Shown: positions 3,058 to 16,599 of the stretch, piece by piece | Position numbering within the stretch: the first letter of the stretch is position 1 | Layout of the letters: every line of letters begins with the position of its first letter | From: Myxococcales bacterium | GTDB taxonomy: Bacteria; Myxococcota_A; Polyangia; Polyangiales; Ga0077539 | Assembly (NCBI GenBank): GCA_016792845.1 | Contig: JAEUKH010000054.1 | Span: 131,708 to 195,707, forward strand | DNA length: 64,000 bases | Direction: 5' to 3' | Notes under the pieces: model-generated | Databases searched by the model: none | The model's input: the letters and a program-made list of their open reading frames with translations, nothing else | What the model was told of the DNA's origin: nothing | Made by a program: the position numbers and the translations under genes

Positions 3058-3197
3058 GGCGGCGGGAGGCTGCGTGCCGTCGGGTCTGCGCTTGACCGGG
3101 GGTGGTGCGGGCTCCTACGGTCGCCCCGGTCGCGCCTCCCATCGAGGCCACGCTGGCCTGTTGCGCAGGGTGGGGTGCGACTGAGCCAAACACCCCG

Positions 3198-5906
3198 ATG
3201 GACACCACGTTTAACGCTGGCATTCCCGCTTTTGGTACGTGGGTATTGTATGCGTTCTTGATCGCCGCGGCGGTCACTTTTGGGCTCTCGGTGCTGGCGG
3301 GCACGGCCACGGCGGGCACGGCGTCACGGTACCTTCGCGCGGCGCGGCTCGCGGCGTTGGGCACCTCGGCCCTCGTCGCGATGGACGTCTTGCTGCTCCT
3401 TTACGCCTTTCTCTCTCACGATTTTCGCATTCGGTACGTCGCCCACTACTCCGATCGGTCGATGCCGCTGCCGTACCTGATGGCGGCGCTTTGGGGCGGC
3501 CAAGACGGCTCGCTCCTTTGGTGGACCTTCCTCCTCTCTGCGTACACGACGGTGTGTGTGCTGTGGCTCAAGGGGCGGTACCGCGAGCTGGCGCCCTGGG
3601 TGATCGCGACGCTCATGGGGGTGATGCTGTTCTTCGGCGTCCTCATGGCCTTCGCGGCGAACCCGTTTGCGGCCACGTTTGGGGGCGCGCCGGTCGACGG
3701 TGACGGGCTGAACCCGTCGCTGCAAAACTTCTACATGGCCATCCACCCGCCGTCGCTCTACACGGGCTTTGTGGGCTGCGCGGTGCCCTTCGCCTTCGCC
3801 GTGGCCGCGCTGGTGACCGGCAGGCTCGACGAAGAGTGGGTCGTCGCGGTGCGGCGCTGGGTGCTCTTCGCGTGGATGTTTCTCTCGATCGGCAACATCC
3901 TCGGGATGCTCTGGGCCTACGAGGAGCTCGGCTGGGGCGGCTTCTGGGCCTGGGACCCCGTCGAGAACGCGGCCTGCCTCCCATGGTGGACCCTCACCGC
4001 GTACCTCCACTCGGTGATGACCCAAGAGCGCCGAGGCATCTTCAAGATCTGGAACGTCTCGCTCCTCCTCGGGAGCTTCTTTCTCACGATCTTCGGCACC
4101 TTTCTGACCCGCTCTGGGCTCATCGCGAGCGTGCACAGCTTCGCCCAGTCGGGCATCGGCATTTACTTCGTGTGGTTCATGGGCCTCTTGCTGCTCTTCT
4201 CGGTGGCCCTGGTGCTCTGGCGGCTGCCGAGGCTCCGCCGCCCGGTCGAGTTCGACAGCTTGCTCTCGCGCGAGGCCGCGTTCGTGGCCAACAACTGGCT
4301 CCTGCTCGGCATCTGCGTCTTCATCGCCCTGGCCACGGTCTGGCCCAAAGTCAGCGAAGCCGTGTGGAATGAGCGGCTCACCGTTGGGGCGAGCTTTTAC
4401 AACGCCTGGCTCGCGCCCCTCGGCCTCTTGCTCTTCGCGCTCATGGGCGTGGGCACCCTGACCCCGTGGCGCAAGGGCTCGAAGAAGCTCTTGCTCGAAG
4501 CCTTTCGCGGGCCCCTCGCGGTGGGCCTCACGGCGGGCGTCTTGCACGCGCTGGTGGGCCATCGCTTCGCGATGCCCGCGGTGGTGACCCTCGAACCCAT
4601 CTACGACCAGACCACCGCCATCAGGCTCGGCGGCCTCACCCTCGGGCACCTCAACGTGGGCCGGGGCCTGGCCTGGTTCGACGGTCATTTGCCGCCCTTC
4701 GTGACCGCGGTGACGGCCTTCAACATCGCCACCCTCGTGCAAGAGTTCGTGCGCGGCACCCTCGCCCGGATGCGCTCGAAGCAAGAGCCCGCCCCGGTGG
4801 CCCTCGCGCAGCTGGTCTCGCGCAACCGCCGTCGGTACGGCGGGTACATCGTTCACCTCGGCTTCTCGATGATGATGCTGGGCTTCCTCGGGGCCGCGTT
4901 TCGGCAAGAGGCCGAGGCCACCATCGCGCCGGGCGAGCGCTTCACCGTGGGCCGTTACACCCTGCGGTACGACGGCACCGAGACCCGACGCGACCCGAAC
5001 AAGCGCGAGGTCTTCGCCAATGTCACCCTGTTTCGCGGCGCCGACGAGATCGGTCGGGCTCACCCCGCCCGCTTCATTTACAGCACGCACCCCGAGATGC
5101 CGACCACCGAGGTGAGCATCACCACGACCTTGCGCGAAGACATCTACCTCGTAATGGCCACGGTCGACGCCAACACCCGGGTCGCGCACCTCAAGGCGTA
5201 CGTCAACCCGCTCACGGTGTGGCTCTGGCTCGGGGGCCTCGTGCTCGTCGCAGGGGTGCTCGTGGCGATGTGGCCCGACGCCAGCCGCGAGGCCGCGCTG
5301 GCCTTCGCGGGGCGCGACCGAGACGAGCCCGCAAGGCCCGCAAAGAAGGGCCCCGGCGCGACCGAGGCGGCGGCCCTGGTCGCGCTCTCGCTCGCGGCGC
5401 TCCTGGCCGCGCCGGGTGAGGCCCTCGCGCAGCCGCAGCCGAGACACACCGGCTCGTCGCCCATGACGGTGGGCGTCGCCGAGCGCTTCTCGCCCGAAGA
5501 GCACAGGCTCTTTGATCACCTGCTCTGCATGTGCGGCGACTGCGATCGGCTCCCCCTCGCGACCTGCTCGTGCGATTTCGCGGCGGCGCAGCGCAACCGC
5601 ATGCGCGAGCGGCTCGGGCGCGGCGAGCCCGCCCAATCGATCATCGACGCGTATGTGGCCCGGTACGGCCCCGCGGCGCTCACGGTGCCGCCCGACCGGG
5701 GGCACAACAAGGCCCTCTACATCGTGCCCGTGGCGGCCCTCATCGCCGCAGGGGTGGGCGCCTTCGCGATGGTCAAGCGATGGAGCCGCAGGGCGCAGTC
5801 AGACACCCAAGACGCCGCCAAGGCGGCGAGCGCGAATCCCGTCGACCCGGCACAAACCAGCTACGACGCCCGCATCGAGGAGGAACTCCGTGGCCTCGAC
5901 GATTGA
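3198..5906 (+). CDS. ccmF: cytochrome c-type biogenesis heme lyase CcmF fused to a CcmH-like C-terminal domain
   Basis: ORF 3102-5906 with ATG at 3198 (MDTTFNAGIPAFGTWVLY). It is a polytopic membrane protein with the CcmF tryptophan-rich signature WGGFWAWDPVENAACLPWWTLTAYLHS. The C-terminal 150 aa contain LLCMCGDCDRLPLATCSCDFAAAQRNRMRERL plus a TM helix, as in CcmH. Confidence 0.9.
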   Translation: MDTTFNAGIPAFGTWVLYAFLIAAAVTFGLSVLAGTATAGTASRYLRAARLAALGTSALVAMDVLLLLYAFLSHDFRIRYVAHYSDRSMPLPYLMAALWGGQDGSLLWWTFLLSAYTTVCVLWLKGRYRELAPWVIATLMGVMLFFGVLMAFAANPFAATFGGAPVDGDGLNPSLQNFYMAIHPPSLYTGFVGCAVPFAFAVAALVTGRLDEEWVVAVRRWVLFAWMFLSIGNILGMLWAYEELGWGGFWAWDPVENAACLPWWTLTAYLHSVMTQERRGIFKIWNVSLLLGSFFLTIFGTFLTRSGLIASVHSFAQSGIGIYFVWFMGLLLLFSVALVLWRLPRLRRPVEFDSLLSREAAFVANNWLLLGICVFIALATVWPKVSEAVWNERLTVGASFYNAWLAPLGLLLFALMGVGTLTPWRKGSKKLLLEAFRGPLAVGLTAGVLHALVGHRFAMPAVVTLEPIYDQTTAIRLGGLTLGHLNVGRGLAWFDGHLPPFVTAVTAFNIATLVQEFVRGTLARMRSKQEPAPVALAQLVSRNRRRYGGYIVHLGFSMMMLGFLGAAFRQEAEATIAPGERFTVGRYTLRYDGTETRRDPNKREVFANVTLFRGADEIGRAHPARFIYSTHPEMPTTEVSITTTLREDIYLVMATVDANTRVAHLKAYVNPLTVWLWLGGLVLVAGVLVAMWPDASREAALAFAGRDRDEPARPAKKGPGATEAAALVALSLAALLAAPGEALAQPQPRHTGSSPMTVGVAERFSPEEHRLFDHLLCMCGDCDRLPLATCSCDFAAAQRNRMRERLGRGEPAQSIIDAYVARYGPAALTVPPDRGHNKALYIVPVAALIAAGVGAFAMVKRWSRRAQSDTQDAAKAASANPVDPAQTSYDARIEEELRGLDD

Positions 5907-6549
5907 CCCGCTCCGTCAGTGGATCGCCCGCCACGCGGCGCTCTCGGGGGCCCTCGCGATGCTGGCCGTGGCGAGCGTTCTGGCCCTGCTCCGGGGCGCG
6001 CCGTCGGGCGTGCTCTGGGTCGCCTTCGGCGCCCTCGCCGCGGCGGTGATGCTCTTCTGGGAGGCCCTGCGCCTCGTGCTCGACCCCAGCGCCTCGGGCG
6101 ACGACGGCGACGACGACCAGGAGGCCCGCAGCACCGCGGCCCTCGAAGCCCGCAAGCGCGCGGCCCTGAGGGCGATCAAAGACCTCCAGTTTGAGCGCTC
6201 CCTTGAGCGCATCACCGAAGAAGACTTCGAGGCCCTGTCGTCGAAGTATCGCGCCGAGGCTCGGGCCGCGATGGAGGCCCTCGACCTCAGCCTCGGCGCC
6301 TGGCGGGTGCGCGCCGAGGCGATGCTGAAGCAGGCCGAAGGTGACGGCCTCGACGCCCTCAGGGCCGAGGTCGCCGCGCGCCCGGGCGAGTCTGCCGCGC
6401 CTCCGACTGAGTCTGACTCAGTCAACGCCGCGGCGGCCCCGGTCGGGCAGCAGACGTGCCCGCAGTGCGCTGCGGCCAACGACGACGATGCGGTGTTCTG
6501 TAAGAAGTGTGCGGCGCGACTCGCGCCCGAGGCGCAGGCCGATGCGTAA
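5890..6549 (+). CDS. hypothetical membrane protein with coiled-coil and C-terminal zinc-ribbon
   Basis: ORF 5512-6549 trimmed to GTG at 5890, which overlaps the ccmF end by 17 nt. It has two TM helices (LSGALAMLAVASVLALL, VLWVAFGALAAAVMLFW) and a charged helical region. It ends in CPQCAAANDDDAVFCKKC. Confidence 0.6.
   Translation: MASTIDPLRQWIARHAALSGALAMLAVASVLALLRGAPSGVLWVAFGALAAAVMLFWEALRLVLDPSASGDDGDDDQEARSTAALEARKRAALRAIKDLQFERSLERITEEDFEALSSKYRAEARAAMEALDLSLGAWRVRAEAMLKQAEGDGLDALRAEVAARPGESAAPPTESDSVNAAAAPVGQQTCPQCAAANDDDAVFCKKCAARLAPEAQADA
6405..6423. repeat. palindrome family A, copy A1: GACTGAGTCTGACTCAGTC (9-bp arms)
   Basis: Read directly. Lies inside CDS 5890-6549 and is read as T-E-S-D-S-V. 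Confidence 0.9.
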
Positions 6550-7900
6550 CCGGGTCACGGTCTTGGTGTTGCTCTTGGGGCTCGGGGCGGGTCGCACCGC
6601 CGCGGCCCAACACGACGCCGCGAGCGCTCTCGGAGATGCCAGCGTCGAGGCCCCGCACCCGGGGCCCGTCGACCCGCACGCGGCGCTTCCGCCGGGGCAC
6701 CCGCCGACCGCGGCAGACCCGCACGCCGGGGCTGAGATTCAGCGCGCGGCGGTGCCTCAGACCTTCGCCGAGGAGGCTCCGGGGCTCGCGCCCGGGGTCG
6801 TGCTCGTGCGGGTGGTGAACGCCGCCGGAGACCCCCAACCCGAGGCACTGGTGCGCCTCGGCGCGATGCGCGACGGCGACCGTGACACGCCCCGCGAGGC
6901 GCGCACCGACAACAACGGCGTGGCGCGCTTCGAGGGCCTCGACCGGGGCTCGGGCATCGCGTACCGGGCCAGCACCGAGCGAGAGGGCGCGCGCTTTGGG
7001 GCCATGCCCTTTCAGCTCGGGGCCCGGTCAGGGTACCGGGTTCAGCTCGTGCGGCACGAGGTCGAGCACGGGGGGCGCGCGGTGCTCCTCTGGGATGCGC
7101 GGGTTGAGCTTCGCTTCAAAGACGATCGCATCGTGGTGGTGCATCGGTATCGCGTCGCCAACCTGTCGGGGCTCGCGCTGCCCGGAGACCCGCCGCACCC
7201 GACGGCCTATGTGCCGCAGCCGGGCCTGCGCTTCGGCCTCCCCGCGGGGTACACGGCCTTTCAAGCGGCCCCCTCGATGGACGACCTCCGCCTCAACGCG
7301 GAGGGCGACGTGGCCATCCTGCAAGGCAGCGTCGCGCCCACCGTCGATCAGCCCGTCGAGGTGACCTGGCAGTACCACGTGCCCATCCGCGGCGGAGACG
7401 TCTCGCTTGAGATGTCGCTGCCCCTCCCGCTGGTGAACGCCACCCTCGCGAGCGAGGCGCCGCGCGGGCTCAGCATGGAGGTCGAGGGCATGCCCGCCGC
7501 CGAGCGCCGGGTCTCTCAGGGCGAGAACATTCTCATCACCGGGGTGAACCGTCAGCCGAACGACCCCGCGGTGCGTTCGTTTCGCATTCACCTCCGGGGC
7601 ATCCCTGCGGCGGCGGGGCCTGAGCGCACGGTGGCCGCGGTGATCGCCGGGGCGCTGGTGCTCGGGGCGCTCGGGCTCGCGGTGCGGCGTCGCAAGGCGC
7701 CGGGCGGGGGCCGAGACCGGGCCGAGCTCGAAGCCGAGCGCGACCGCATCCTGGCCGAGATGCGCGCGCTGGTGGGGCTCCGCGAGACCGGCGAGGTGGG
7801 CCCTGAGACCTACGCCCGCCGTCGGCGCGAGCTGGCCCTGTGGCTCGCCGCGACCCTCCGCGCCCTCGACCCTGACGCCGCCCCGTCGCCCTCGGCGTGA
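6542..7900 (+). CDS. hypothetical secreted protein with a C-terminal TM anchor (carboxypeptidase-regulatory-like beta-sandwich region)
   Basis: ORF 6341-7900 trimmed to ATG at 6542, which overlaps the previous stop by 8 nt. Signal peptide MRNRVTVLVLLLGLGAGRTAAAQ. A VVLVRVVNAAGDPQPEALVRL...TDNNGVARFEGLD segment follows. TM helix AAVIAGALVLGALGLAV precedes RRRK. Confidence 0.65.
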   Translation: MRNRVTVLVLLLGLGAGRTAAAQHDAASALGDASVEAPHPGPVDPHAALPPGHPPTAADPHAGAEIQRAAVPQTFAEEAPGLAPGVVLVRVVNAAGDPQPEALVRLGAMRDGDRDTPREARTDNNGVARFEGLDRGSGIAYRASTEREGARFGAMPFQLGARSGYRVQLVRHEVEHGGRAVLLWDARVELRFKDDRIVVVHRYRVANLSGLALPGDPPHPTAYVPQPGLRFGLPAGYTAFQAAPSMDDLRLNAEGDVAILQGSVAPTVDQPVEVTWQYHVPIRGGDVSLEMSLPLPLVNATLASEAPRGLSMEVEGMPAAERRVSQGENILITGVNRQPNDPAVRSFRIHLRGIPAAAGPERTVAAVIAGALVLGALGLAVRRRKAPGGGRDRAELEAERDRILAEMRALVGLRETGEVGPETYARRRRELALWLAATLRALDPDAAPSPSA

Positions 7901-7950
7901 GGGCGATCGCGGGCACCCGAGACCCTGTCATCGTGCATCGAAGAGACTCC

Positions 7951-8604
7951 ATGCGTTACGCCCTCGCCTCACTCCTTCTGGTCACTCTGGGTTGTTCTCG
8001 CGGCACCGGGCCTGCGGCCTCTGGGGGCGGCGCCGTGCCAGAGGCGCCCTCGCCGGTGACCCCGCGGTCGGAGATCCCGAGTCAGACTCAGCTGCCGACC
8101 ACCACCGGCGCGGCGGCGCCCTCGTTGACCGTCGACAGCCCCGCCCGCGACGCGCTCTTGCCCGAAGGCGCGCCGGCGCCGAGCTTCGTGGGGGTGACCC
8201 ACACGGGCGTCACGGTGATGGCCAACGGCGGCCCGCGCGAGCGCGTCTTGGTGGTGTATTTCTACCCTCGCGACGAGACCCCGGGGTGCACCGCCGAGGC
8301 CTGCGCGTTTCGTGACGCCTTCGCGGGCTATGCCGACGCGGGGGCCGACCTCGTGGGGGTGAGCACCGACTCGGCCGAGGCGCATCGACAGTTCGCGTCG
8401 CACCATCGCTTGCCCTTCGGGCTCATCGCCGACCCCGAGGCGCGGCTCGCGCGGGCCTTCGGTCTCGCGGTCGAGCCGGGCGGCTTCACCCCGCGTACGA
8501 CCTTTGTGATCGGCCGCAGCGGGCGCGTGGCGAGGGTCTTCCCCGGGGTGCAGGTGACGGGGCACTCGGCCGAGGTGCTCGCCGCGGTGCGGGCCGCGCA
8601 CTGA
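7951..8604 (+). CDS. bcp: thiol peroxidase / peroxiredoxin Bcp, lipoprotein form
   Basis: ORF 7897-8604 with ATG at 7951. Lipobox MRYALASLLLVTLGC. Bcp core VLVVYFYPRDETPGCTAEACAFRD...GVSTDSAEAHRQFASHHRLPFGLIADP. Confidence 0.85.
   Translation: MRYALASLLLVTLGCSRGTGPAASGGGAVPEAPSPVTPRSEIPSQTQLPTTTGAAAPSLTVDSPARDALLPEGAPAPSFVGVTHTGVTVMANGGPRERVLVVYFYPRDETPGCTAEACAFRDAFAGYADAGADLVGVSTDSAEAHRQFASHHRLPFGLIADPEARLARAFGLAVEPGGFTPRTTFVIGRSGRVARVFPGVQVTGHSAEVLAAVRAAH
8077..8091. repeat. palindrome family A, copy A2 (reverse complement CTGAGTCTGACTCGG; core GAGTCAGACTC)
   Basis: Read directly. Lies in the linker of the bcp lipoprotein and is read as P-S-Q-T-Q. Confidence 0.8.
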
Positions 8605-8626
8605 GCGCCTTCACGGAGCGTGCGTC

Positions 8627-9484
8627 ATGGCGGGCATTGTTCGAACACCGCGGCGCCCTGAGGGGTGGGTCGCGCCGGGGCCGCGGCCGCGGGGTGCGAT
8701 GGGCGACCCGAGCCTCGCGCCCGCCGACGACGAAGACCTCTGCCTGCTCACGGGCGAGTGGCGCATTTTTCAGAAGCTCCGCGGCCACCGCTGGTCGATG
8801 GACGACCTCGTCACCGCATGGATCGCCCAGGCGAGCGTCGACCCCGGCGCGGTGAGGCGCACCCTCGACCTCGGCTGCGGCATCGGCTCGGTGCTTCTCA
8901 TGACGGCGTGGCGCTTCGCGGAGGCCCAGTGTGTGGGCATCGAGGCCCAAGACGTGAGCTTCGCGATGGCCGCACGGAGCGTCCGATACAACGGCGTCGA
9001 TGACAGGGTGCGGGTGCTTCACGGCGATTTTCGCGGGCCTGTGGGGCTCGACCCAAACCCTGGCTTTGACCTGGTGACGGGCACGCCGCCGTACTTTCCG
9101 CCGGGCACCGGGGTGGAGTCGGGCAAGGTCCAGTGCAGCCCGTGCCGCTTCGAGCACCGGGGCGGCATCGAAGACTACTGCGACGCCGCCGCGCGCTGCC
9201 TCGCCGAGACGGGCACCTTCGTCGTGTGCGGCGCCGCGGGCGAGCACCCGAGGGCCTTGGCCGGGTGCGACCGCGCGGGCCTGAAGCTCAGGGCCTTCTG
9301 GCGGGTGGTGCCCAAGGCCGGGGCGGCCCCGTTGGTGGGCGTCTGGGTCATCGACCGCCGCCACCGCGGGCCCCACGCCGAACACACCCTCACCGTGCGC
9401 GACCCGCACCAACAGTGGACGCCAGACTTCCTCGCGCTGAGGGCCGACATGGGGCTGCCGCCGCCGCTCCGGCGCCCCGGCTGA
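8627..9484 (+). CDS. class I SAM-dependent methyltransferase, TrmN6/YfiC-like (N6-adenine type motif IV)
   Basis: Contains WRIFQKLRGHRWSMDDLV, the SAM motif LDLGCGIGSVLLM and the catalytic-type motif DLVTGTPPYF. The start is uncertain (ATG 8627 or 8699). Confidence 0.8.
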   Translation: MAGIVRTPRRPEGWVAPGPRPRGAMGDPSLAPADDEDLCLLTGEWRIFQKLRGHRWSMDDLVTAWIAQASVDPGAVRRTLDLGCGIGSVLLMTAWRFAEAQCVGIEAQDVSFAMAARSVRYNGVDDRVRVLHGDFRGPVGLDPNPGFDLVTGTPPYFPPGTGVESGKVQCSPCRFEHRGGIEDYCDAAARCLAETGTFVVCGAAGEHPRALAGCDRAGLKLRAFWRVVPKAGAAPLVGVWVIDRRHRGPHAEHTLTVRDPHQQWTPDFLALRADMGLPPPLRRPG

Positions 9485-9495
9485 GTCTGACTCAA
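9481..9495. repeat. palindrome family A, copy A3: CTGAGTCTGACTCAA, with flank AGAATGT
   Basis: Read directly. Its TGA (9482-9484) is the stop codon of CDS 8627-9484. Confidence 0.9.
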
Positions 9496-9511
9496 GAATG
9501 TGACCGCGCGG

Positions 9512-9859
9512 CTACCGCAGCGCCGCACCGAGGAGGGCGAACCCCAACGCCACACCGCTCGCGAGCCCCGCCGCGCGCCGCGCCTCGGTGAGCGACCCCG
9601 CGCTCGCGGCGAGCACCAGCAGCGCGGCGGTCACCCGCGCCTCGGCCGCGGCGTCGCTCCACCGACCGCGCGCGAGGCTCGTCAGGTAGGCCGCGCGGCG
9701 GAGGTCGAGCTCCCAATCGAGGCGTGTGACCGCGGCGTGGGCCAAGAGCCCGAGGGCCGCGAGGGCCATCACCGCGGCGAGGGTGAGCGACGGCCCGCGG
9801 CGCCACGAGACGAGCCCCAAGACCGAGAGCGCCACCAGGGCGAGCCCCGCGGCGCTCAT
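9512..9859 (-). CDS. small hypothetical membrane protein (115 aa, about 4 TM helices)
   Basis: Inner part of ORF 9512-10114, from ATG at 9859: MSAAGLALVALSVLGLVSW. The start overlaps the upstream stop as ATGA. GC-rich third positions. Confidence 0.55.
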   Translation of the reverse strand: MSAAGLALVALSVLGLVSWRRGPSLTLAAVMALAALGLLAHAAVTRLDWELDLRRAAYLTSLARGRWSDAAAEARVTAALLVLAASAGSLTEARRAAGLASGVALGFALLGAALR

Positions 9860-10164
9860 CGCACCCACGCCATCGCCGCGAGCGTCGAGAGCGCCGAGAC
9901 GCCCACGCCCCACTCGAAGCAGCGGGCCAGGCGCTCGGGGTCGCGGCGGAGTCGCGCGATCGCCAAGGCGCCCAGAATGGCCGTGGCGTAGAGCGTCACC
10001 GTCACCCGGCCGACGAAGGGCGTGGCCTCGGTCGAGAGCACCGCCGTGGCGTCGGGCGCGGGGGCGCGCAGGTGCAGCCAGACCCGCGTCGCCGCGAAGA
10101 CCGCCGGGGCCCACGCGAACGACGCGCCCGCGACGGCGAGGGTGCGGCGGCCCCGAGGGCTCAC
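9856..10164 (-). CDS. small hypothetical membrane protein (102 aa, about 3 TM helices)
   Basis: ORF 9856-10197 trimmed to GTG at 10164, which overlaps the radical-SAM stop as GTGA. Hydrophobic segments LAVAGASFAWAPAVFAA, VTVTLYATAILGALAIA and GVGVSALSTLAAMAW. Confidence 0.55.
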   Translation of the reverse strand: MSPRGRRTLAVAGASFAWAPAVFAATRVWLHLRAPAPDATAVLSTEATPFVGRVTVTLYATAILGALAIARLRRDPERLARCFEWGVGVSALSTLAAMAWVR

Positions 10165-11288
10165 GCCCGACGCTCCCAGGCCATCACCCGCGGGCACTCG
10201 GGGTCGGGGCCCATGGCGCCGCGAAGATGGGTCGCGACGACCTTGCAGCCCCCGCGGCAGACGCGCTGAAACTCGCAGCCCGCGCAGGGCTCGGGGGGCG
10301 CGTCGGCGAAGGCCCGAAAGGCGTCGATGGACATTCTTGAGTCTGACTCAGTCACGAAGCTGCACCCCTTGAGGGCGCCCTCGCGGTCGACCGCGGCGAG
10401 GTAGCGCCCCGCCTCGCAGCCGAAGACGCCGAAGCGTTCGAGGCCCGCCGCAGACCCGAGGGCGCCCGCCACGAGGGGCACCAGCGCGCAGTCGATGCGG
10501 AGCGAGAGCCGACCCTCAAGGGCCGCGGCCAGAGGCTTGAGCGCGGCGCCGAGGGCCTCGGCCTGCGAGGGGGTGAGGCGTCGGGCGAGGTACTCGGGTG
10601 AGGCCGCGCGCCCGGCGGGCTTGTACCGAAGGAGCTGAAGCTCGCGCACCCCGAGGTCTGCGAGGCGGTGCGAGAAGGGCGCAACGGAGGCGACGTTCTG
10701 CCGGGTGAGCACCATGTTGACGCCCACCGTGATGCCCGCCGAGACGAGCATGGCGATGGCCTCGTCGGCTTGTCGGGCGCCCTCGAAGCCGCGCACGGCG
10801 AGGTAGTCTGCGGGGCTGCCGTCGTGGCTGACGTTGACCTGCGCGAAATCTCGGAGCGCTGCGGCGCGGCGCGGGGTGAGCCCCAACCCGCTGGTGGTGA
10901 CCACGGGGGTCATGCCGAGGGCGCGGGCGAGGGTGGCGAGGCTCCCGAGGTCGTCGCGGAGCATGGGCTCGCCGCCGCCGAAGGCCACGGTGAAGACCCC
11001 CGTGTCGCGGAGCCCGCGCAGGGTCGCTTCGAGGGCCTCGCGGTCGACGTGGCGCCCCTCGGGCGAGGCGCTCTGGTAGCAGCCCGTGCAGGCCGCGGGG
11101 CAGCGCGAGGTGACGGCGATGTGGGCTTCGAGGGGCGCCTCGGGCGGGGGAGGGTCGTCGCGCCAAGCCCCGGCGTCGTCGAGGCCCAAGCGCCGGGCGC
11201 GGTCGCGGTCGACGGCCACGAGGGTGTCGTCGCCCAAGCGCACCCAAGCGCCGAACGGGGCCGCGCGGAGGCGGAGCTCAGCCCGCAT
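10161..11288 (-). CDS. radical SAM / SPASM-domain enzyme (peptide- or protein-modifying maturase type)
   Basis: ORF 10161-11501 trimmed to ATG at 11288 (MRAELRLRAAPFGAWVRL). CX3CX2C cluster in VTSRCPAACTGCY, then GGGEP. C-terminal SPASM-like cysteines: GCEAGRYLAAVDREGALKGCSF...CAGCEFQRVCRGGCKVV...DPECP. Confidence 0.85.
   Translation of the reverse strand: MRAELRLRAAPFGAWVRLGDDTLVAVDRDRARRLGLDDAGAWRDDPPPPEAPLEAHIAVTSRCPAACTGCYQSASPEGRHVDREALEATLRGLRDTGVFTVAFGGGEPMLRDDLGSLATLARALGMTPVVTTSGLGLTPRRAAALRDFAQVNVSHDGSPADYLAVRGFEGARQADEAIAMLVSAGITVGVNMVLTRQNVASVAPFSHRLADLGVRELQLLRYKPAGRAASPEYLARRLTPSQAEALGAALKPLAAALEGRLSLRIDCALVPLVAGALGSAAGLERFGVFGCEAGRYLAAVDREGALKGCSFVTESDSRMSIDAFRAFADAPPEPCAGCEFQRVCRGGCKVVATHLRGAMGPDPECPRVMAWERRA
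10337..10351. repeat. palindrome family A, copy A4: TTGAGTCTGACTCAG, with flank ACATTCT on the left
   Basis: Read directly. Lies inside the radical-SAM CDS and is read as T-E-S-D-S-R. Confidence 0.9.
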
Positions 11289-11508
11289 CGTCGGCACCGG
11301 GCGAGGGAGTTTCTGAGTCAGACTCAGCAGGGTCGGGTTCGGGGAGAGGGGCGTCGGGGGAAGGGGCGGCCTCGTCGAGGGCGGCGTTGAGGGCCACCAG
11401 GAGCGCGGCGCCCGCGGTGGCCGAGAGGAAGAGCATCTCGACGGCGCTCCCGATCGAGGAGCAGTTGGCGCCGGGGCCGCGTCGGATGCGCAAGATGCCA
11501 TCGCTCAC
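11278..11508 (-). CDS. small hypothetical protein (76 aa): short N-terminus, one hydrophobic helix, acidic Pro-rich tail
   Basis: Inner part of ORF 11278-11712. GTG at 11508 overlaps the upstream stop as GTGA, with AGGAG 7 nt upstream. Sequence: (M)SDGILRIRRGPGANCSSIGSAVEMLFLSATAGAALLVALNAALDEAAPSPDAPLPEPDPAESDSETPSPGADDAG. The first ~50 codons have strongly GC-rich third positions. The end overlaps the radical-SAM start by 11 nt. An alternative ATG lies at 11436. Confidence 0.5.
   Translation of the reverse strand: MSDGILRIRRGPGANCSSIGSAVEMLFLSATAGAALLVALNAALDEAAPSPDAPLPEPDPAESDSETPSPGADDAG
11313..11327. repeat. palindrome family A, copy A5: CTGAGTCAGACTCAG (perfect 15-mer)
   Basis: Read directly. 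About 25 nt upstream of the radical-SAM ATG, inside the tail of the 76-aa ORF, read as A-E-S-D-S-E. Confidence 0.9.
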
Positions 11509-12596
11509 AGAGAGACTCCTTCGAGCATCTGGGGGTCGTGGAGGAACATCGCGAGGTAGGCTACCGCGAGCACGGCGAGGGCGCAGAAGGCCGCGCGGAG
11601 GGCCCTCGGCAAGAGCCCCGCGGTCTTGAGCGTCACCGCGGCGAGGTAGACCCCTATGGTGCCGAGGCCGAGGGTCAAAAAGGGCCACGGGTCGTGGTCG
11701 TCGGTGCGCCACGCGAGGAGCCCGCCGCCCGCCGTGAGGAGCCCCAGTTGGGCCAGCGGCGTGACCCGGGCGAGCTGGGCGACGAGCGACTTCTTGAGTC
11801 TGCCTCGAAAAATCTTCACCCCGGCCGCCGCGGCGCTGAGCGCGAGGGCGACGAGGAGGGCGACGCTCGCCCTGAGGAGGGCGCGTCGTCGGGCCAGCAC
11901 CCTGGCGTTGGCGCGCACGGCCTCGTCGACGTCGAGGCCCTCGACCTCGCGCGCGGCCTGGGTCTCGTCGCCGCTCCGCTGTCGTGCGGTGACCAGGCGG
12001 TCGGCGGCGAGGTCGCGGAGGTGCGGGGGCGTGGCGCCGTCACGGGCGAGGGCGAGGTAGACCCGCACGGCGTCGTCGGGGCGGGCGAGGCGTTCGAGGT
12101 AGGCCTCGGCGACGAGGTAGCGGGCTTCGGCGCGCACGCGCCCGGGGGCGAAGCGCGCGCTCTCGGCGTCGAGGCGCCGGATGGCGTCGAGGTCGCGGGC
12201 GAGGGCGGGGTCGCGGCGCACCCGTTCGAGGGCCCTGAGCGGGGCGAAATCGCCCTCGGCGTGGGCTTCGAGGTCTTCGATCCGGGCGATGGCCCGCGAG
12301 GCCCAACGGCTCGACGGGTCGAGGGCCACGAAGCGACGGTACCCGTCGAGGGCCGCGCCGAAGGCCATGGCCTCGTCGTCGGTGGCCGCGAGGAAGTACA
12401 CCCCGAGGTGCCGCAGGGCCGGGTCGGGGCGCCCGAGGAGCGCGCGAAAATGCTGCCGCGCGAGGTCGACCTGGCGGGCCTCAAGGGCGTCACGCCCCGC
12501 GCTGAGGCTCGGGTCTTGTTGGGCGAAGGCGAGGCCCGAGGCGAGGGCGAGGGAGATACTGAGTCTGACTCGAAAACCCGCGACCCGGCGACGCAT
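11505..12596 (-). CDS. hypothetical protein: signal peptide, TPR-like helical region, four C-terminal TM helices
   Basis: ORF 11505-12596. Signal peptide MRRRVAGFRVRLSISLALASGLAFAQQ. Helical repeats rich in A/L/R/D. C-terminal hydrophobic segments, e.g. VALLVALALSAAAAGV and AFCALAVLAVAYLAMFL. Confidence 0.7.
   Translation of the reverse strand: MRRRVAGFRVRLSISLALASGLAFAQQDPSLSAGRDALEARQVDLARQHFRALLGRPDPALRHLGVYFLAATDDEAMAFGAALDGYRRFVALDPSSRWASRAIARIEDLEAHAEGDFAPLRALERVRRDPALARDLDAIRRLDAESARFAPGRVRAEARYLVAEAYLERLARPDDAVRVYLALARDGATPPHLRDLAADRLVTARQRSGDETQAAREVEGLDVDEAVRANARVLARRRALLRASVALLVALALSAAAAGVKIFRGRLKKSLVAQLARVTPLAQLGLLTAGGGLLAWRTDDHDPWPFLTLGLGTIGVYLAAVTLKTAGLLPRALRAAFCALAVLAVAYLAMFLHDPQMLEGVSL
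11794..11808. repeat. palindrome family A, degenerate copy A6: TTGAGTCTGCCTCGA (11/15)
   Basis: Read directly. Lies inside CDS 11505-12596 and is read as R-G-R-L-K. It shares the flank CTCGAAAA with copy A7. Confidence 0.5.
12559..12573. repeat. palindrome family A, copy A7: CTGAGTCTGACTCGA (13/15)
   Basis: Read directly. About 20 nt downstream of the ATG of CDS 11505-12596 and read as R-V-R-L-S. Confidence 0.8.
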
Positions 12597-12610
12597 GGCG
12601 GGGGCGATGC

Positions 12611-13729
12611 TCAGCTTCCGCGGGCGAAGCGCGCGGCCTCGGCGCCGGCGCGGTGACCGCTGGCGAGGGCGCCGGCGATGCCGTCACCGTCTCGGGCGAG
12701 GGCGACCTCGCCGGCCGCGAAGAGCCAAGGCGCGACCCGGGTCTGGCCGTCGGCGTCGAGCACCCGACCCGCGGCGTCGAGCCGCAGCCCCGCGCCGAAG
12801 GCCCGCCCTTCACGGGGCGCGAACCACTCGACCGGGTCGGCGCCCCGGGCCGCGCCGGTGGCCGAGAGGATGCGCTCGTGCCGCGCCGTCCATACGGGGA
12901 GGCCCGCGGTGCACTCTTCGAGGACCGAGGCGAAGCGCAGCCCGCCGCCCACGAGGCCGCCGGTGGCGAGCACCACGGCCCGCGCCCTGACGCTCTCGCC
13001 GTTGGCCAAGACCACCTTGGCGACGCGGCCCGGCTCGACCCGCGCCCGCGCGCTGAGCACGCCCACGTCGCGGGGCACCCAGGCCTGAAGGGCGGCCGCC
13101 ATGCGCAGCCCCGGAGGCTCGCCCGCGGCCCCCGCCACCTCGCCCACGGGTCGCCCCAAAAGCCGCTCAAGCTGCGCCGCCACATCGTGCCGCTTGAGCC
13201 CCAACACGGGCGGAAAGAGAAAGCCCCCGACGGTGTCGACGGCCTCTGCCAGCGAGGCCGCGAGGGTGGCCACGAGGCCTTCGGTGTCGAGCCGCATCGC
13301 CGCCGCGCCGAAGCCCGCCTCGCCCGCGTCGAAGCCGCAAGGCACCACTCGCCCCCCGAGGGTCTGCGCCAAGAGCCGCGGCTGCCAGGCCGGGTGCACC
13401 CCGAGGTCGACCACGCCCAAGGGCGCGCCCTCGCGCACCCGGTCAAGGTTGAGGAGCGACGAGAGGGCGCCCGCCACCCCCGACACCTGGAGCGCCCCTG
13501 CGGTCACGTAGCGCCCGCCGCGCTGCCACGGGCCCTCGGCCGACCAGCGGGCGAAGGGCTCTCGCGCCGCGCCCCAAAGCACCCCCGAGGCCATGGCCAG
13601 GGCGCCCTGAGACTCGGCCACGATGAGCGCGCTGGCGCCCGCCTCGTGGGCCGCCCGCGCGGCTGCGAGCCCCGCGGCCCCGCCGCCGATCACCACCACC
13701 TCGGCGTCGCGTCGTGGGGTGCTCATCAC
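12611..13729 (-). CDS. glpB: FAD-dependent oxidoreductase, anaerobic glycerol-3-phosphate dehydrogenase subunit B-like
   Basis: ORF 12611-13729. N-terminal dinucleotide fold EVVVIGGGAAGLAAARAAHEAGASALIV. C-terminal AAGEV...GIAGALASGHRAG. The start overlaps the glpA stop as ATGA. Confidence 0.7.
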   Translation of the reverse strand: MMSTPRRDAEVVVIGGGAAGLAAARAAHEAGASALIVAESQGALAMASGVLWGAAREPFARWSAEGPWQRGGRYVTAGALQVSGVAGALSSLLNLDRVREGAPLGVVDLGVHPAWQPRLLAQTLGGRVVPCGFDAGEAGFGAAAMRLDTEGLVATLAASLAEAVDTVGGFLFPPVLGLKRHDVAAQLERLLGRPVGEVAGAAGEPPGLRMAAALQAWVPRDVGVLSARARVEPGRVAKVVLANGESVRARAVVLATGGLVGGGLRFASVLEECTAGLPVWTARHERILSATGAARGADPVEWFAPREGRAFGAGLRLDAAGRVLDADGQTRVAPWLFAAGEVALARDGDGIAGALASGHRAGAEAARFARGS

Positions 13730-15378
13730 GCCACCGCCCCGAGCCCGCGGAGGGTCGCGTCGATCACGAGCTCAGACCGCGCTTGGGCCGTGCCGATGGC
13801 CGGGAGCCGCGAGCGCTTGCGCGCCATGATGAGGTCGATGGCTTGGGCCCGCACCTCGGCGGCGCTCCACCCGAGGAGCTCGCCGGCGATGAGGGCCGCG
13901 GTGAGGGCGCACTCGGCGCCGCCGCAGGGCCCGTAGGCGAGGTTGGTGCGCCGCGCGACGTCTTGCAGGGTGCGCGCGCCCTCGTGGGTGACGACGTAGC
14001 GCACCTCGGCGGCGAGCACGGGCTCGGTGGTGCAGGCCACCAGACGGCCCGCCTTGCCGCCCTCGGCGAGGACGCGCTCGGCCCGGGTGCCGTGGCGCCC
14101 CACGAGCCGCAGGGCCGCATAGTGTGAGATGTCGAAGCGGGCCGCGAGGGTCTCGACGTCGACGATGGCGTCGCCCCCCGGGAGCGGCGCCGTGTGGGTG
14201 GTGCAGCGCGCGCCGACGCCGAGGGCGGGGGCCACGAGGTCGGCCGCTTCTTCTGCAAATTGGCGATAACTCGCGAGTTTACCGCCGATCATGGACCATA
14301 GGTTTTTCACCCCGTCGCGGGCGTGGTCGAGCACCTCGTGCTCGCGCGAGAGGGCGTCTTCGAGCTTGCCCCAGGCGTAGAGGGTGGGCCTCGCGCCGAC
14401 GGTGGTGCCGATGATGCGGGCCTCGCGCACCCGCGGCAGCACGCGCTCGATGCCTTGGACGAGGTAGCGCACCTCGTCGCTGGTCACCGGGAGCGCGTCG
14501 AGGTTGGCGTAGGTGTCGTCGTCGGTGGTGCCGATGAGCGAGGTGTTCTCCCACGGTTCGATGAAGATGCTGCGCCCGTCGATGGCCTCGCACATCACGG
14601 CCACGTCGGTGATGGGCCGGTCGAGCATGAGGTGGACGCCCTTGCCGGGGCGCACCTTGACGCGCCCTTCGAGCCCTGCGAAACCCGCGGTGATGGGCGA
14701 CCACGCGCCGGTGGCGTTGACCACGGCGCGGGCTGAAATGTCGCGGGTCTCGCCGGTGAGCCGGTCGCGCACCCGCACGCCGGTGGCGACGCCGTCTTCG
14801 ATGAGCACCTTCTCGACCGAGGTGTGCAAGAGCACCGAGCCGCCGTGCTCGCGCGCGTCGAGGGCGTTGGCGTTGCAGAGCCGCGCGCCGTTGATGCCCC
14901 ACTCGTCGAAGGTCATGGCCCCGAGGAGCTTGTCGCTCACGAGCCCCGGCACCACCTTGAGGGCCTCGTCGGGGGTGAGCCGCGCGTGACGCTTGCCGCG
15001 CTTGAGCGGCTGGTACTGGTCGTACACCGCGAAGAAGGCGTCGTACGCCTCGAACCGCAGGCGGTCGAAGAAGCTCTGCCCGTAAATCGGCCACACAAAG
15101 GGAACACGAAAGATCATGTGCGGCGCGATGCGCTGGATGTTGCCCGAGTCTTCACACGACGAGCGGGTCACCGAAGGGTGCGTCGTGAGGTAGCGCGGGC
15201 CCCCGTGGATCATCCCCGATGAGTTGCCGCTCGCCCCGAAGGCGAGGTCATTCCGCTCGACCAGGAGGGTGCGCAGCCCGCGGAGGCTCAGGTCTCTCGC
15301 GAGGCCCGTGCCGTTCACCCCGCCACCGATGATGACCACGTCACAGTCGTAACTACGATCGTTCGCGCGAATCGACAT
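13726..15378 (-). CDS. glpA: anaerobic glycerol-3-phosphate dehydrogenase subunit A (FAD; C-terminal BFD-like 2Fe-2S domain)
   Basis: ORF 13726-15639 trimmed to ATG at 15378. MSIRANDRSYDCDVVIIGGGVNGTGLARDLSLRGLRTLLVERNDLAFGASGNSSGMIHGGPRYL. C-terminal VVTHEGARTLQDVARRTNLAYGPCGGAEC. Confidence 0.9.
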   Translation of the reverse strand: MSIRANDRSYDCDVVIIGGGVNGTGLARDLSLRGLRTLLVERNDLAFGASGNSSGMIHGGPRYLTTHPSVTRSSCEDSGNIQRIAPHMIFRVPFVWPIYGQSFFDRLRFEAYDAFFAVYDQYQPLKRGKRHARLTPDEALKVVPGLVSDKLLGAMTFDEWGINGARLCNANALDAREHGGSVLLHTSVEKVLIEDGVATGVRVRDRLTGETRDISARAVVNATGAWSPITAGFAGLEGRVKVRPGKGVHLMLDRPITDVAVMCEAIDGRSIFIEPWENTSLIGTTDDDTYANLDALPVTSDEVRYLVQGIERVLPRVREARIIGTTVGARPTLYAWGKLEDALSREHEVLDHARDGVKNLWSMIGGKLASYRQFAEEAADLVAPALGVGARCTTHTAPLPGGDAIVDVETLAARFDISHYAALRLVGRHGTRAERVLAEGGKAGRLVACTTEPVLAAEVRYVVTHEGARTLQDVARRTNLAYGPCGGAECALTAALIAGELLGWSAAEVRAQAIDLIMARKRSRLPAIGTAQARSELVIDATLRGLGAVA

Positions 15379-15550
15379 ATTGCCTGAAACCCGCGACAAG
15401 GGGTCGCCGGTTTTCGGCCGAGACCATAGGGTTCGACACGGTGCGTTGTCACGCAGAGAGCACGCGATTCGCGAGGGCGCCCTGCGGGCGGTCGGGCCGT
15501 GCGGGCTGTTCGACGCGGCCCGGGGGGTGTACCGATGGGCGCCAGCGGCG

Positions 15551-16165
15551 ATGGGTGACGACGGAGGCAGGCGTGTGGTGCTGGTGGCGCAGCGGGCGAG
15601 CGGCTCGGGGCGCTTTCGTCTCGACGACCTTCCGAGCACGAGCGGTCGTCTCGATGTTCACCTGCGGTGCCTGCGGGCGGCCTTTTTGCTCTCGCACGGT
15701 CTGCGCCGCGACGTGACCGTCGAGCTCGTACTCTTGGGCGACCGCGAGGCCCCGCGGGTGGTGCGCCTCGTGGGCGCGTCGCTCCGTTTTTTGCGCCCTG
15801 ACGAGCGCGCCATGGCCGTGCTGATGCAGAAGATTCTGACCGCCGAGGTCGGGTCTGAGGGCTGGCACGAGGTGCGCCCGGGGTGCTTCGTGTCGCGCGG
15901 CGGCACCGCCACCCTCGAAGCCGACTGGCACCCCGAGAACCTCTTGTGGCTCGACGAGACCGGCGAAGACCTTCGGGCCGCATCGCTCGCCCCGGGCCCG
16001 GTGACCCTGGTGCTCGGCGACCATCACGGGCTCGACGACGCCACCCGCGCGATCCTCGAAGGCCGCGGCGCGAAGAAGGTCTCGATCGGCCCCCTCAGCG
16101 TGCACGCCGACGACGCCCTCGCCGTCGCCTTCAACGAGCTCGATCGAAGGGCCTCAGCGCGCTGA
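15551..16165 (+). CDS. trmY: SPOUT methyltransferase resembling archaeal tRNA (pseudouridine54-N1)-methyltransferase TrmY (DUF358)
   Basis: ORF 15380-16165 trimmed to ATG at 15551. DDLPSTSGRLDVHLRCLRAAFLLSHGLRRDVTVELVLLG, FLRPDERAMAVLMQKIL, LVLGDHHGLDD and ISIGPLSVHADDALAVAFNELDRR line up with the TrmY sequence as I remember it. Confidence 0.7.
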   Translation: MGDDGGRRVVLVAQRASGSGRFRLDDLPSTSGRLDVHLRCLRAAFLLSHGLRRDVTVELVLLGDREAPRVVRLVGASLRFLRPDERAMAVLMQKILTAEVGSEGWHEVRPGCFVSRGGTATLEADWHPENLLWLDETGEDLRAASLAPGPVTLVLGDHHGLDDATRAILEGRGAKKVSIGPLSVHADDALAVAFNELDRRASAR

Positions 16166-16513
16166 GCCGTCGCCCTGAGGGCCCGCGTCAACGGGCGGAG
16201 GCGGGGCGCCGTAGATCTCACCGATGGAGCCCTGGTCTTGCGGCGGCCGCGGCGGCGCGTTGGGGTTGAGCCGCGCCCCCGCGTCTTGCACCTGCGGCGG
16301 CGGCGGGGCGCCGTACACCGCTGCCACGCGCTCGCGGCACGCGCCCAAGGCCACCGTGGCCCCGAGCAGCAAGGCCGCCCGCGCCCGTCGCGGCCCCTCG
16401 CTGCGCGCGGCCTCGTGGGATGCGCCGCGCGGCATCGCACAAAAAGGGCACAGCGCGGCCTCAACGCGTACGTGTCGTGAACACCCCTCGCAAGGGGTCA
16501 TGACGTCTCCCAT
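16154..16513 (-). CDS. hypothetical small protein: N-terminal zinc ribbon, one TM helix, duplicated YGAPPPP motif
   Basis: ORF 16154-16513. CEGCSRHVRVEAALCPFC, then TM helix AALLLGATVALGA. VYGAPPPP and IYGAPPPP each occur once. Converges on trmY with a 12-nt overlap. Confidence 0.5.
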   Translation of the reverse strand: MGDVMTPCEGCSRHVRVEAALCPFCAMPRGASHEAARSEGPRRARAALLLGATVALGACRERVAAVYGAPPPPQVQDAGARLNPNAPPRPPQDQGSIGEIYGAPPPPVDAGPQGDGSAR

Positions 16514-16599
16514 GGCGACGACGCTACCAGAGCGCGGCGACCGAGGGGCAGCGGCTCTTTCAAGAATTCTCTCTCGCCCATCGGCAGACGCGTCGGGGC

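Follow-up and report, generated by a model that had tools for sequence, protein, structure and literature searches.

An apparently Polyangiales-specific gene cassette pairing a radical-SAM/SPASM enzyme with a small protein that carries an invariant single-cysteine motif

Introduction

Radical S-adenosylmethionine (SAM) enzymes of the SPASM type that are paired with small peptides have yielded new chemistry, including pyrroloquinoline quinone (PQQ), mycofactocin, sactipeptides, streptide, and darobactin, and many uncharacterised SPASM cassettes exist. Here we describe a cassette of five genes, designated g1 to g5, on a 64-kb stretch of DNA from a Myxococcales bacterium (contig JAEUKH010000054.1; the whole stretch of 64,000 nucleotides is referred to as the window). 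In this cassette, the gene for a radical-SAM/SPASM enzyme (g3) adjoins that for a 76-aa protein (g2). The cassette is undescribed in Pfam, NCBIfam, PADLOC, and the searchable literature, and genomes of 115 species carry it, its sequences falling into about 1,700 clusters. As the candidate substrate, g2 offers a sharply defined nine-residue stretch that is a concrete target for a new protein modification. Cultured carriers of the cassette include Polyangium fumosum DSM 14668, P. jinanense, and Chondromyces apiculatus DSM 436.

Results and Discussion

Gene organization at the locus

The window has a composition of 71–77% GC, with spurious long open reading frames (ORFs) in every frame. A preliminary description of the locus had proposed five minus-strand genes at 9512–12596. 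All five were present at those coordinates in the ORF list and on reading of the sequence, and a scan of GC at the third codon position showed that the signal changes frame exactly at the gene borders, backing five consecutive minus-strand genes. This support is weighty because spurious ORFs abound in DNA of such composition. Direct reading of the sequence also bore out the gene junctions, which are GTGA at g1/g2, an 11-nt overlap at g2/g3, GTGA at g3/g4, and ATGA at g4/g5. The GTG start of g2 overlaps the stop codon of g1 and has the Shine-Dalgarno sequence AAGGAG 8 nt on its 5' side; because this element is encoded at the C-terminus of g1, the residues L-E-G are kept there. A fixed stoichiometry of the five products, drawn from the gene overlaps in the preliminary description, would be in keeping with this arrangement. 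A search of positions 5000–17000 against Rfam gave zero matches. The features of the locus are collected in Table 1.

Table 1. Coordinates of the cassette genes, their motifs, and neighboring features in the window
Feature	Position	Strand	Description
g1	11505..12596	-	363 aa; predicted Sec-type signal peptide (AFA|QQ), periplasmic tetratricopeptide repeat (TPR)-like domain, and four C-terminal transmembrane helices
g2	11278..11508	-	76 aa; GTG start; candidate substrate
g2 motif	11446..11484	-	R9-R-G-P-G-A-N-C16-S-S-I-G-S21; Cys16 codon 11461-11463
g3	10161..11288	-	375-aa radical-SAM/SPASM enzyme
N-terminal extension of g3	11190..11288	-	~33 residues; AlphaFold2 (AF2) strands E6-10, E13-19, E22-27, helix H28-33
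CX3CX2C radical-SAM cluster motif of g3	11079..11102	-	C63, C67, C70; reads C-P-A-A-C-T-G-C
SPASM region of g3	10194..10490	-	invariant C267, C291, C309, C335, C338, C344, C348, C365
g4	9856..10164	-	102 aa; hydrophobic helix/helices; loop P-E-P-D-P-A-x-V-x-W-S
g5	9512..9859	-	115-aa predicted membrane protein; very divergent family
GlpB-like flavoprotein gene	12611..13729	-	14 nt upstream of g1; FAD_binding_2; weak GlpB matches (64 bits vs 174-680)
GlpA-like FAD dehydrogenase gene	13726..15378	-	TIGR03377 320 bits vs 553; DAO + DAO_C; 4-nt overlap with GlpB-like gene
Sigma-70-like promoter match	15423..15452	-	GTGACA-18-TATGGT; upstream of GlpA-like gene; consensus match only
Palindrome copies	6408-6420, 8078-8090, 9482-9494, 10338-10350, 11314-11326, 11795-11807, 12560-12572		13-15 bp; (C)TGAGTC[A/T]GACTCA(G)

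The radical-SAM/SPASM enzyme g3

The identity of g3 as a radical-SAM/SPASM enzyme was confirmed by profile and motif. The Pfam model Radical_SAM (PF04055) matched with 61.7 bits, above its gathering score of 29.5, placing the protein in the radical SAM superfamily, and the intact CX3CX2C motif is invariant in an alignment of 49 homologues. No other CX3CX2C enzyme is encoded in the 64-kb window. A match to Fer4_12 was marginal (22.1 bits against a cut-off of 22). The seven or eight cysteines, including CX2CX5CX3C, that characterise the SPASM subfamily are found in g3 as C335-x2-C338-x5-C344-x3-C348 plus four further cysteines; all eight are invariant among the 49 homologues, and fold matches to SPASM enzymes agree. 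The Pfam SPASM model (PF13186) gave no match in the window g3, and a match is precomputed for one homologue only.

The SPASM cysteines of g3 align with those of SuiB and PqqE, including the linker cysteine of SuiB, which completes Aux I in that enzyme (PMC6231123). The auxiliary clusters of anSME, SuiB, and PqqE are fully ligated, whereas CteB, a sactisynthase, has an open Aux I site reserved for a substrate cysteine (PMC6231123). Because the eight invariant cysteines of g3 include the equivalent of the SuiB linker cysteine, two auxiliary Fe-S clusters fully ligated by cysteine are predicted, as in anSME, SuiB, and PqqE. Such clusters have been suggested, for anSME and BtrN, to oxidise a radical intermediate and not to bind substrate (PMC6231123).

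A profile search against radical-SAM/SPASM subfamily models, as proposed in the preliminary description, reached no equivalog cut-off, so the enzyme falls into no known subfamily. The best NCBIfam model was TIGR04347 (94.1 bits against a cut-off of 525), followed by GeoRSP (82.8 against 400), PqqE (TIGR02109; 79.9 against 381), MftC (TIGR03962; 79 against 265), StsB (73 against 625), and NirJ (66 against 515). An anSME model was not among the 25 best NCBIfam matches. With every equivalog score far under its cut-off, g3 is by sequence profile a member of no characterised subfamily. The name "heme biosynthesis protein" carried by one g3 homologue in the databases was rejected as an unsupported transfer; the haem and haem d1 models (NirJ, AhbC, AhbD) score 58–66 bits against cut-offs of 500–650, and no tetrapyrrole genes recur in the neighborhood. 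A role in defence was likewise rejected, the only PADLOC match being generic viperin similarity of the radical-SAM core. Homologues of g3 form at least 1,861 clusters, all generically named; those with a named source belong to Polyangium or to metagenome-assembled genomes labelled Polyangiales, Labilithrix, Myxococcaceae, or Deltaproteobacteria.

When a profile of 49 members was compared with the Protein Data Bank (PDB), the closest match was PqqE (E 7e-25, residues 46–374), then SuiB and SkfB. The AF2 model of g3 (mean predicted local distance difference test, pLDDT, 91.2) gave SuiB as the best fold match, with a template-modeling (TM) score of 0.72 and an E of 1e-15 at a sequence identity of only 14–16%, and then SkfB, PqqE, CteB, and anSME. 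The fold match to anSME had a TM score of ~0.62, and in the PDB profile comparison this enzyme was matched over the radical-SAM core only (E 4e-10). Further matches included two SPASM-type enzymes with non-peptide substrates, GDGT-MAS (7tom; root-mean-square deviation 2.7 over 212 columns) and BlsE.

Ahead of the radical-SAM domain, g3 carries a short N-terminal extension with a conserved FGAW...LVA.DR sequence in the 49-homologue alignment. In the AF2 model, this part consists of three strands and one short helix, compared with the winged helix-turn-helix, three strands, and three helices by which a RiPP recognition element (RRE, where RiPP denotes a peptide that is ribosomally synthesized and then post-translationally modified) or PqqD is recognised. 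By the order of its predicted secondary structure only, the extension resembles a truncated RRE-like peptide-binding sheet; RRE domains bind leader peptides by extending a three-strand sheet (PMC6231123).

The small protein g2

The g2 family follows the pattern R-x-G-x-G-A-N-C-S-S-[IV]-G-S, then L-F, and then a hydrophobic helix of about 20 residues, which in the window copy was placed by a hydropathy scan at residues 22–40 as its one such helix. A hydrophobic strand, I/V-L-x-V-R, lies directly before the motif. The motif is invariant in 42 diverse homologues that share 38–69% overall identity, is at least 95% conserved across 80 genome loci, and occurs once in the 64-kb window. Everything around it varies: the N-terminal segment is 4–40 residues long, mostly acidic, and freely variable, and the variable C-terminal tail is rich in Pro, Asp, and Glu, with a His-Glu repeat in one case. 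The g2 family, as delimited by a profile search, numbers 1,729 clusters when grouped at 90% identity and 302 when grouped at 50%; among the matches listed, all bear "hypothetical" names and are 69–128 aa long. Pfam searched at E ≤ 10 returned only a noise-level match to DUF7269.

The preliminary description had found in the 76-aa protein no resemblance to a known precursor class and no Cys-rich or aromatic-rich core. The protein is not featureless, however, since it carries the invariant single-cysteine motif. A handful of residues that never change, set in a small protein that otherwise drifts and is encoded beside a SPASM enzyme, is our main ground for taking g2 as the prime candidate, and probably the substrate, of g3. 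The cofactor precursors PqqA and MftA likewise hold invariant residues within an otherwise variable peptide.

Other explanations of the motif were considered. A lipobox, a Tat signal, or a MYXO-CTERM-type tag was rejected, as the hydrophobic segment follows the cysteine and the second Arg is not invariant; g2 also has no passenger domain and no NCBIfam match. One natural in-frame fusion of g2 and g3 was found (P0435, 502 aa, at 560–2068 of locus L084), with g1 in front of it, overlapping by 4 nt. The fusion lies on one 2.1-kb contig from one sample, may be real or a one-base assembly error, and is therefore weak evidence. Two other apparent fusions, P0431 and P0496, proved to be frameshifted read-throughs.

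Conservation of the cassette

The pattern GANCSS[IV]GS was scanned against one genome per species and matched in 115 species genomes, the cultured ones all being Polyangiales (Polyangium, Chondromyces, Labilithrix, and Byssovorax). Gene calls around three g3 homologues gave the order g1-g2-g3-g4(-g5) with overlaps of 4 or 17 nt. Gene order was then counted in 80 fetched loci, Sorangium, Haliangium, and Nannocystis not being among them, and the denominators for gene position are the loci with enough flanking DNA. The enzyme gene lies directly downstream of g2 in 68 of 70 loci and g1 directly upstream of it in 57 of 73; g4 follows g3 in 53 of 67, and g5 follows g4 in at least 35 of 52. A 4-nt stop/start overlap is found at 43 of 54 g1-g2 junctions, 51 of 71 g2-g3 junctions, and 38 of 54 g3-g4 junctions. 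Because this arrangement recurs in 80 loci of other genomes, it is far beyond chance. The cassette is conserved and looks Polyangiales-specific. The co-occurrence of the flanking small genes, which the preliminary description had named as a check, was thereby established: conservation of g1, g2, g4, and g5 alongside the enzyme holds across Polyangiales. Full-text searches of the literature returned nothing relevant on the motif, on SPASM proteins in myxobacteria or Myxococcota, or on radical SAM enzymes in Polyangiales, and no family model covers the partners, which upholds the earlier remark that the gene set is not a described system.

Departures from the common order fall into few types. 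In one subclade, a large (~780 aa), Cys-rich secreted protein stands in place of g1, with g2, g3, g4, and g5 kept. This substitute was read directly in locus L004 (5641–7980) and forms an ORF cluster of five loci that includes L017; for L005, L008, L011, L013, and L014, the replacement is suggested by the finding that no g1 was detected upstream. In part of the clade with linked GlpA- and GlpB-like genes, to which the window belongs, g4 and g5 are missing.

When the flanking ORFs of the 80 loci were clustered, no recurrent protease, transporter, or biosynthetic gene emerged, and the only recurrent neighbors were housekeeping genes (EF-P, MurB, HrpB) in clade-level synteny. This result bears on whether the locus is a conventional RiPP cluster, in which g2 would be a precursor, the modified peptide would be released, and g1, g4, and g5 would serve in export or self-immunity. 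A SPASM enzyme beside a small ORF is the classic signature of a RiPP cluster, the relatives of g3 include SuiB, SkfB, and CteB, and myxobacteria are rich in secondary metabolites. The protease, ABC transporter, or other tailoring gene of a canonical cluster never recurs, however, and the segment before the motif, as short as 8–10 residues in the window copy, falls short of an ordinary leader. Across an order, moreover, the motif is invariant and not diversified, and the 64 kb hold one g2-type ORF and one CX3CX2C enzyme. On balance, a conventional RiPP cluster appears quite unlikely.

Partner proteins

Neither Pfam, NCBIfam, nor PADLOC has a family that covers g1, g2, g4, or g5. The preliminary description of g1 as a protein with a signal peptide, a TPR-like domain, and four transmembrane helices agrees with its AF2 model (pLDDT 94.8), which is all-helical and comprises an N-terminal signal-like helix ending in A-x-A, helix pairs of the TPR type, and a C-terminal set of four long helices. 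A fold search returned generic TPR proteins only (BamD, YbgF, LapB), all at E ≥ 1.5e-3, and no match for the four-helix membrane part. Within that part, a cysteine in the fourth transmembrane helix (C338 of g1) is shared by at least 90% of homologues, and the C-terminal helices carry a P-F-x-x-L-G motif.

Both g4 and g5 had been described as membrane proteins. For g5 this holds, with three hydrophobic helices in the hydropathy scan. For g4, the scan put a single helix over threshold in the window's protein, against two in homologues, so that its membrane location is less firmly shown than those of g1, g2, and g5. The g5 of the window and that of Polyangium show no pairwise similarity, but iterated profiles, whichever of the two they start from, arrive at a common set of ORFs in six loci, and g5 is for this reason treated as one very divergent family. 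The Polyangium-type g5 (L002, 9480–9947) has conserved V-H-G and G-W-L-F-E-R-K-E-H sequences and sub-threshold Pfam matches to COX15-CtaA (E 0.0014), DUF2231, and cytochrome b561, which are haem-binding membrane families; the window-type g5 has none of these three matches.

With partners that are all predicted membrane proteins (g4 less firmly), g2 could instead be a membrane tether or adaptor that keeps g3 at the membrane, where the enzyme's target would be a lipid, quinone, or tetrapyrrole, or else a different membrane protein such as g1. The conserved C338 of g1 would fit such a role, as would the matches of g3 to SPASM-type enzymes acting on non-peptide substrates (GDGT-MAS, BlsE, and the low-scoring NirJ, AhbC, and AhbD models) and the faint haem-family matches of the Polyangium-type g5; a natural g2-g3 fusion is also what would be expected of a tether. 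A tether would not, however, need a soluble single-cysteine motif that is fully invariant, the best full-length relatives of g3 are peptide maturases, and pathway genes for lipids, quinones, or tetrapyrroles do not recur nearby. We regard a tether or adaptor role for g2 as possible but rather doubtful.

Proposed function of the cassette

The reading we favor is that the cassette is a self-contained protein-maturation module, in which g3 would oxidatively modify the g2 motif and the product would remain bound to the partner proteins as part of a membrane complex, with no linked protease or exporter. We put the chances of this reading at about even. What the data show directly is the genes with their overlaps and joint occurrence, the invariant motif of g2, and the cluster motifs and closest relatives of g3; the identity of g2 as the substrate, the chemistry, the complex, and any physiological role are what we infer. 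Several observations support g2 as the substrate. The enzyme gene adjoins g2 in nearly all loci, mostly with 4-nt overlaps, and the two families are alike in size (1,729 and at least 1,861 clusters). The nearest solved relatives of g3, by sequence and by fold, are peptide-modifying SPASM enzymes, and g3 has a conserved extension with three predicted strands, resembling the sheet with which RREs bind leaders. The in-frame fusion P0435 on its 2.1-kb contig points in the same direction. That modified g2 is not exported is supported by the finding that no protease, transporter, or biosynthetic gene recurs nearby.

Under this maturation model, g3 would act in the cytoplasm and bind the N-terminal segment of co-translated g2, the I/V-L-x-V-R strand of which would pair with the three-stranded N-terminal sheet of the enzyme. 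A 5'-deoxyadenosyl radical generated by g3 would then abstract a hydrogen within G-A-N-C-S-S-[I/V]-G-S, and a second electron would leave via the auxiliary clusters, amounting to a two-electron oxidation. The outcome would be an oxidative modification at the single invariant Cys (Cys16) or at its Ser or Asn neighbors, the candidates being oxidation of the formylglycine type or a short cross-link within the molecule. Modified g2 would be neither cleaved nor exported as a free peptide; its helix would keep it attached to the membrane, where it may be one subunit of a complex that also includes g1, g4, and usually g5. Conservation, membrane partners (g4 less firmly), and the lack of export machinery point to a housekeeping modification of a membrane complex and not to an antibiotic.

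A number of observations weigh against the maturation model. Two of the 70 loci have g2 without an adjacent enzyme. In L052 (6871–9200), g1, g2, g4, and g5 are present, no enzyme is, and the tail of g2 is a long His-Glu repeat; in L076, a g2-like ORF (at about 8000–8222) follows a 1339-aa TPR/transglutaminase-like ORF. The g2 helix has acidic flanks on both sides in most members, so that it could lie either way round. The fusion P0435 places the enzyme after the helix; were that helix to cross the membrane, enzyme and motif would face opposite sides, and modification would have to precede insertion. The Pfam PqqD model (PF05402) found no match at E ≤ 10 in four members of the g3 family. Transcripts of the cassette were looked for and none turned up, its sequence being present in DNA metagenomes only (sludge, wastewater). 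Finally, chemistry is poorly predicted from sequence similarity in the SPASM subfamily (PMC6231123).

A bolder form of the maturation model is that g2 gives rise to a new cofactor or catalytic residue that is derived from protein and tethered to the membrane. It would be formed by g3 from the invariant Asn-Cys-Ser-Ser and would function in a Polyangiales-specific envelope complex with the TPR protein. We consider this unlikely. If true, PQQ, mycofactocin, and the QhpC cross-links would be joined by a fourth kind of peptide cofactor made by radical SAM enzymes, and no earlier kind stays anchored in the membrane.

Comparison with known systems

From comparison with characterised enzymes, the cassette appears to work like a SPASM maturase with a co-encoded substrate, yet it belongs to none of the families compared. 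The PqqE/PqqA/PqqD system is closest in that PqqE is the nearest solved relative of g3 by sequence profile, its auxiliary clusters are fully ligated (PMC6231123), and it acts on a small co-encoded peptide with few invariant reactive residues, as g3 would on g2. Unlike PqqE, g3 has cysteines at positions 267 and 291; its score with TIGR02109 is far below the cut-off of 381 bits, and the cassette has no PqqB, PqqC, or PqqD genes. In contrast to PqqA, g2 lacks a Glu/Tyr pair, possesses a hydrophobic helix, and is accompanied by membrane proteins.

SuiB, which installs the Lys-Trp cross-link of streptide in SuiA, is the best fold match, shares the eight-cysteine SPASM pattern including the linker cysteine, and has an N-terminal domain of the peptide-binding type. 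Its full RRE has ~100 residues, however, against ~33 in the extension of g3 (three strands, one helix); the g2 motif has no Lys/Trp pair, and there is no transporter or quorum-sensing context.

With anSME, which converts Cys or Ser to formylglycine, g3 shares the SPASM architecture and two fully ligated auxiliary clusters (predicted in g3), and anSME oxidises one Cys or Ser in a short conserved motif, as g3 would. Sequence similarity is confined to the radical-SAM core, however, and g3 is not a member of that family. The stretch G-A-N-C-S-S-I-G-S does not contain the C/S-x-P/A-x-R signature, and no sulfatase recurs in the fetched neighborhoods.

The mycofactocin system (MftC/MftA/MftB) offers a parallel in that its SPASM enzyme modifies a short, unvarying motif within a small peptide encoded alongside it, as g3 would; the peptide becomes a redox cofactor, and the enzyme is often encoded beside dehydrogenases. 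It differs in that the score of g3 with TIGR03962 is far below the cut-off and in that the cassette has no MftB, MftD, MftE, or MftF genes. In place of the C-terminal Val-Tyr of MftA, g2 ends in a variable acidic tail, and it has a membrane-type helix.

Maturases of sactipeptides and ranthipeptides use substrate cysteines for thioether cross-links, and their precursors usually have several. The enzymes of this group (CteB, SkfB, AlbA, PapB, NxxcB, and also QhpD) resemble g3 in being SPASM/Twitch proteins, with SkfB and CteB among its fold matches. In contrast to their precursors, g2 has one cysteine; the score with StsB is far below cut-off, and all eight ligand cysteines are present in g3, whereas CteB has an open Aux I site (PMC6231123). 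The GeoRSP and TIGR04347 pseudo-SAM/SPASM systems differ in that g3 scores under their cut-offs, that its CX3CX2C motif is intact, and that its partners have no NCBIfam match. Set against all of these, the cassette is distinguished by a membrane-type helix on the candidate substrate, an invariant single-cysteine motif, three dedicated partners, of which one has a predicted periplasmic TPR domain, and the lack of a protease or exporter.

Upstream Glp-like genes and other neighbors

Upstream of g1 in the window lie genes for a GlpB-like flavoprotein and a GlpA-like flavin adenine dinucleotide (FAD)-dependent dehydrogenase (Table 1). The promoter match ahead of the latter is the only one in 9000–16500, where 0.1 is expected, and the operon in this genome probably comprises seven genes, starting with the GlpA-like gene. 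Scores of both products lie under the equivalog cut-offs, so that they are not placed in GlpABC, and no GlpC-like gene was seen in the stretch of the window examined or in locus L001. Linkage of Glp-like genes to the cassette was found in eight of the 80 loci, all in the window's own clade.

These genes raise the alternative that the membrane module serves a GlpA/GlpB-like dehydrogenase as an anchor or electron acceptor in place of GlpC, with g3 maturing the module. The coupling of the GlpA- and GlpB-like genes to g1 in the window (through a 4-nt overlap and a 14-nt gap) and in eight other loci speaks for it, as does the lack of a GlpC-like gene. The linkage is confined to a single clade, however, most cassettes lying in unrelated contexts; g4 and g5 are often missing in exactly that clade, and the GlpA/B-like proteins score below their cut-offs. 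Service to such a dehydrogenase as the function of the cassette is thus very unlikely, although it is compatible with the maturation model and does not exclude it. Under the cofactor form of that model, g2 might in the window's clade be the membrane partner of a GlpAB-type dehydrogenase that lacks GlpC.

The plus-strand genes that converge on g5 encode a CcmF-CcmH fusion for cytochrome c maturation (3102–5906), a redoxin of the AhpC/TSA type that may be CcmG-like (7948–8604), and a SAM methyltransferase (8627–9484).

A palindrome array particular to this genome

The window contains seven copies of TGAGTCNGACTCA with no more than two mismatches, all within 6408–12572 and none elsewhere in the 64 kb. 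This count, and the position of four copies inside 9512–12596, agree with the preliminary description. The copies are spaced ~0.5–1.7 kb apart over 6.2 kb, and the exact 11-mer core of the palindrome occurs six times against 0.16 expected. One copy is located between two convergent stop codons (9484 and 9512), and three lie in or at the end of the stretch that encodes the CcmF-CcmH fusion, the redoxin, and the methyltransferase. A role of the palindromes as part of the cassette was ruled out by their absence from all 83 related loci and by their variable positions, and they are regarded as a trait of this genome. They occupy variable codons in three frames without adding length, and so are substitutions and not insertions. 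An RNA hairpin is excluded because the center of the palindrome is a single base; the array looks like a set of sites for a dimeric DNA-binding protein.

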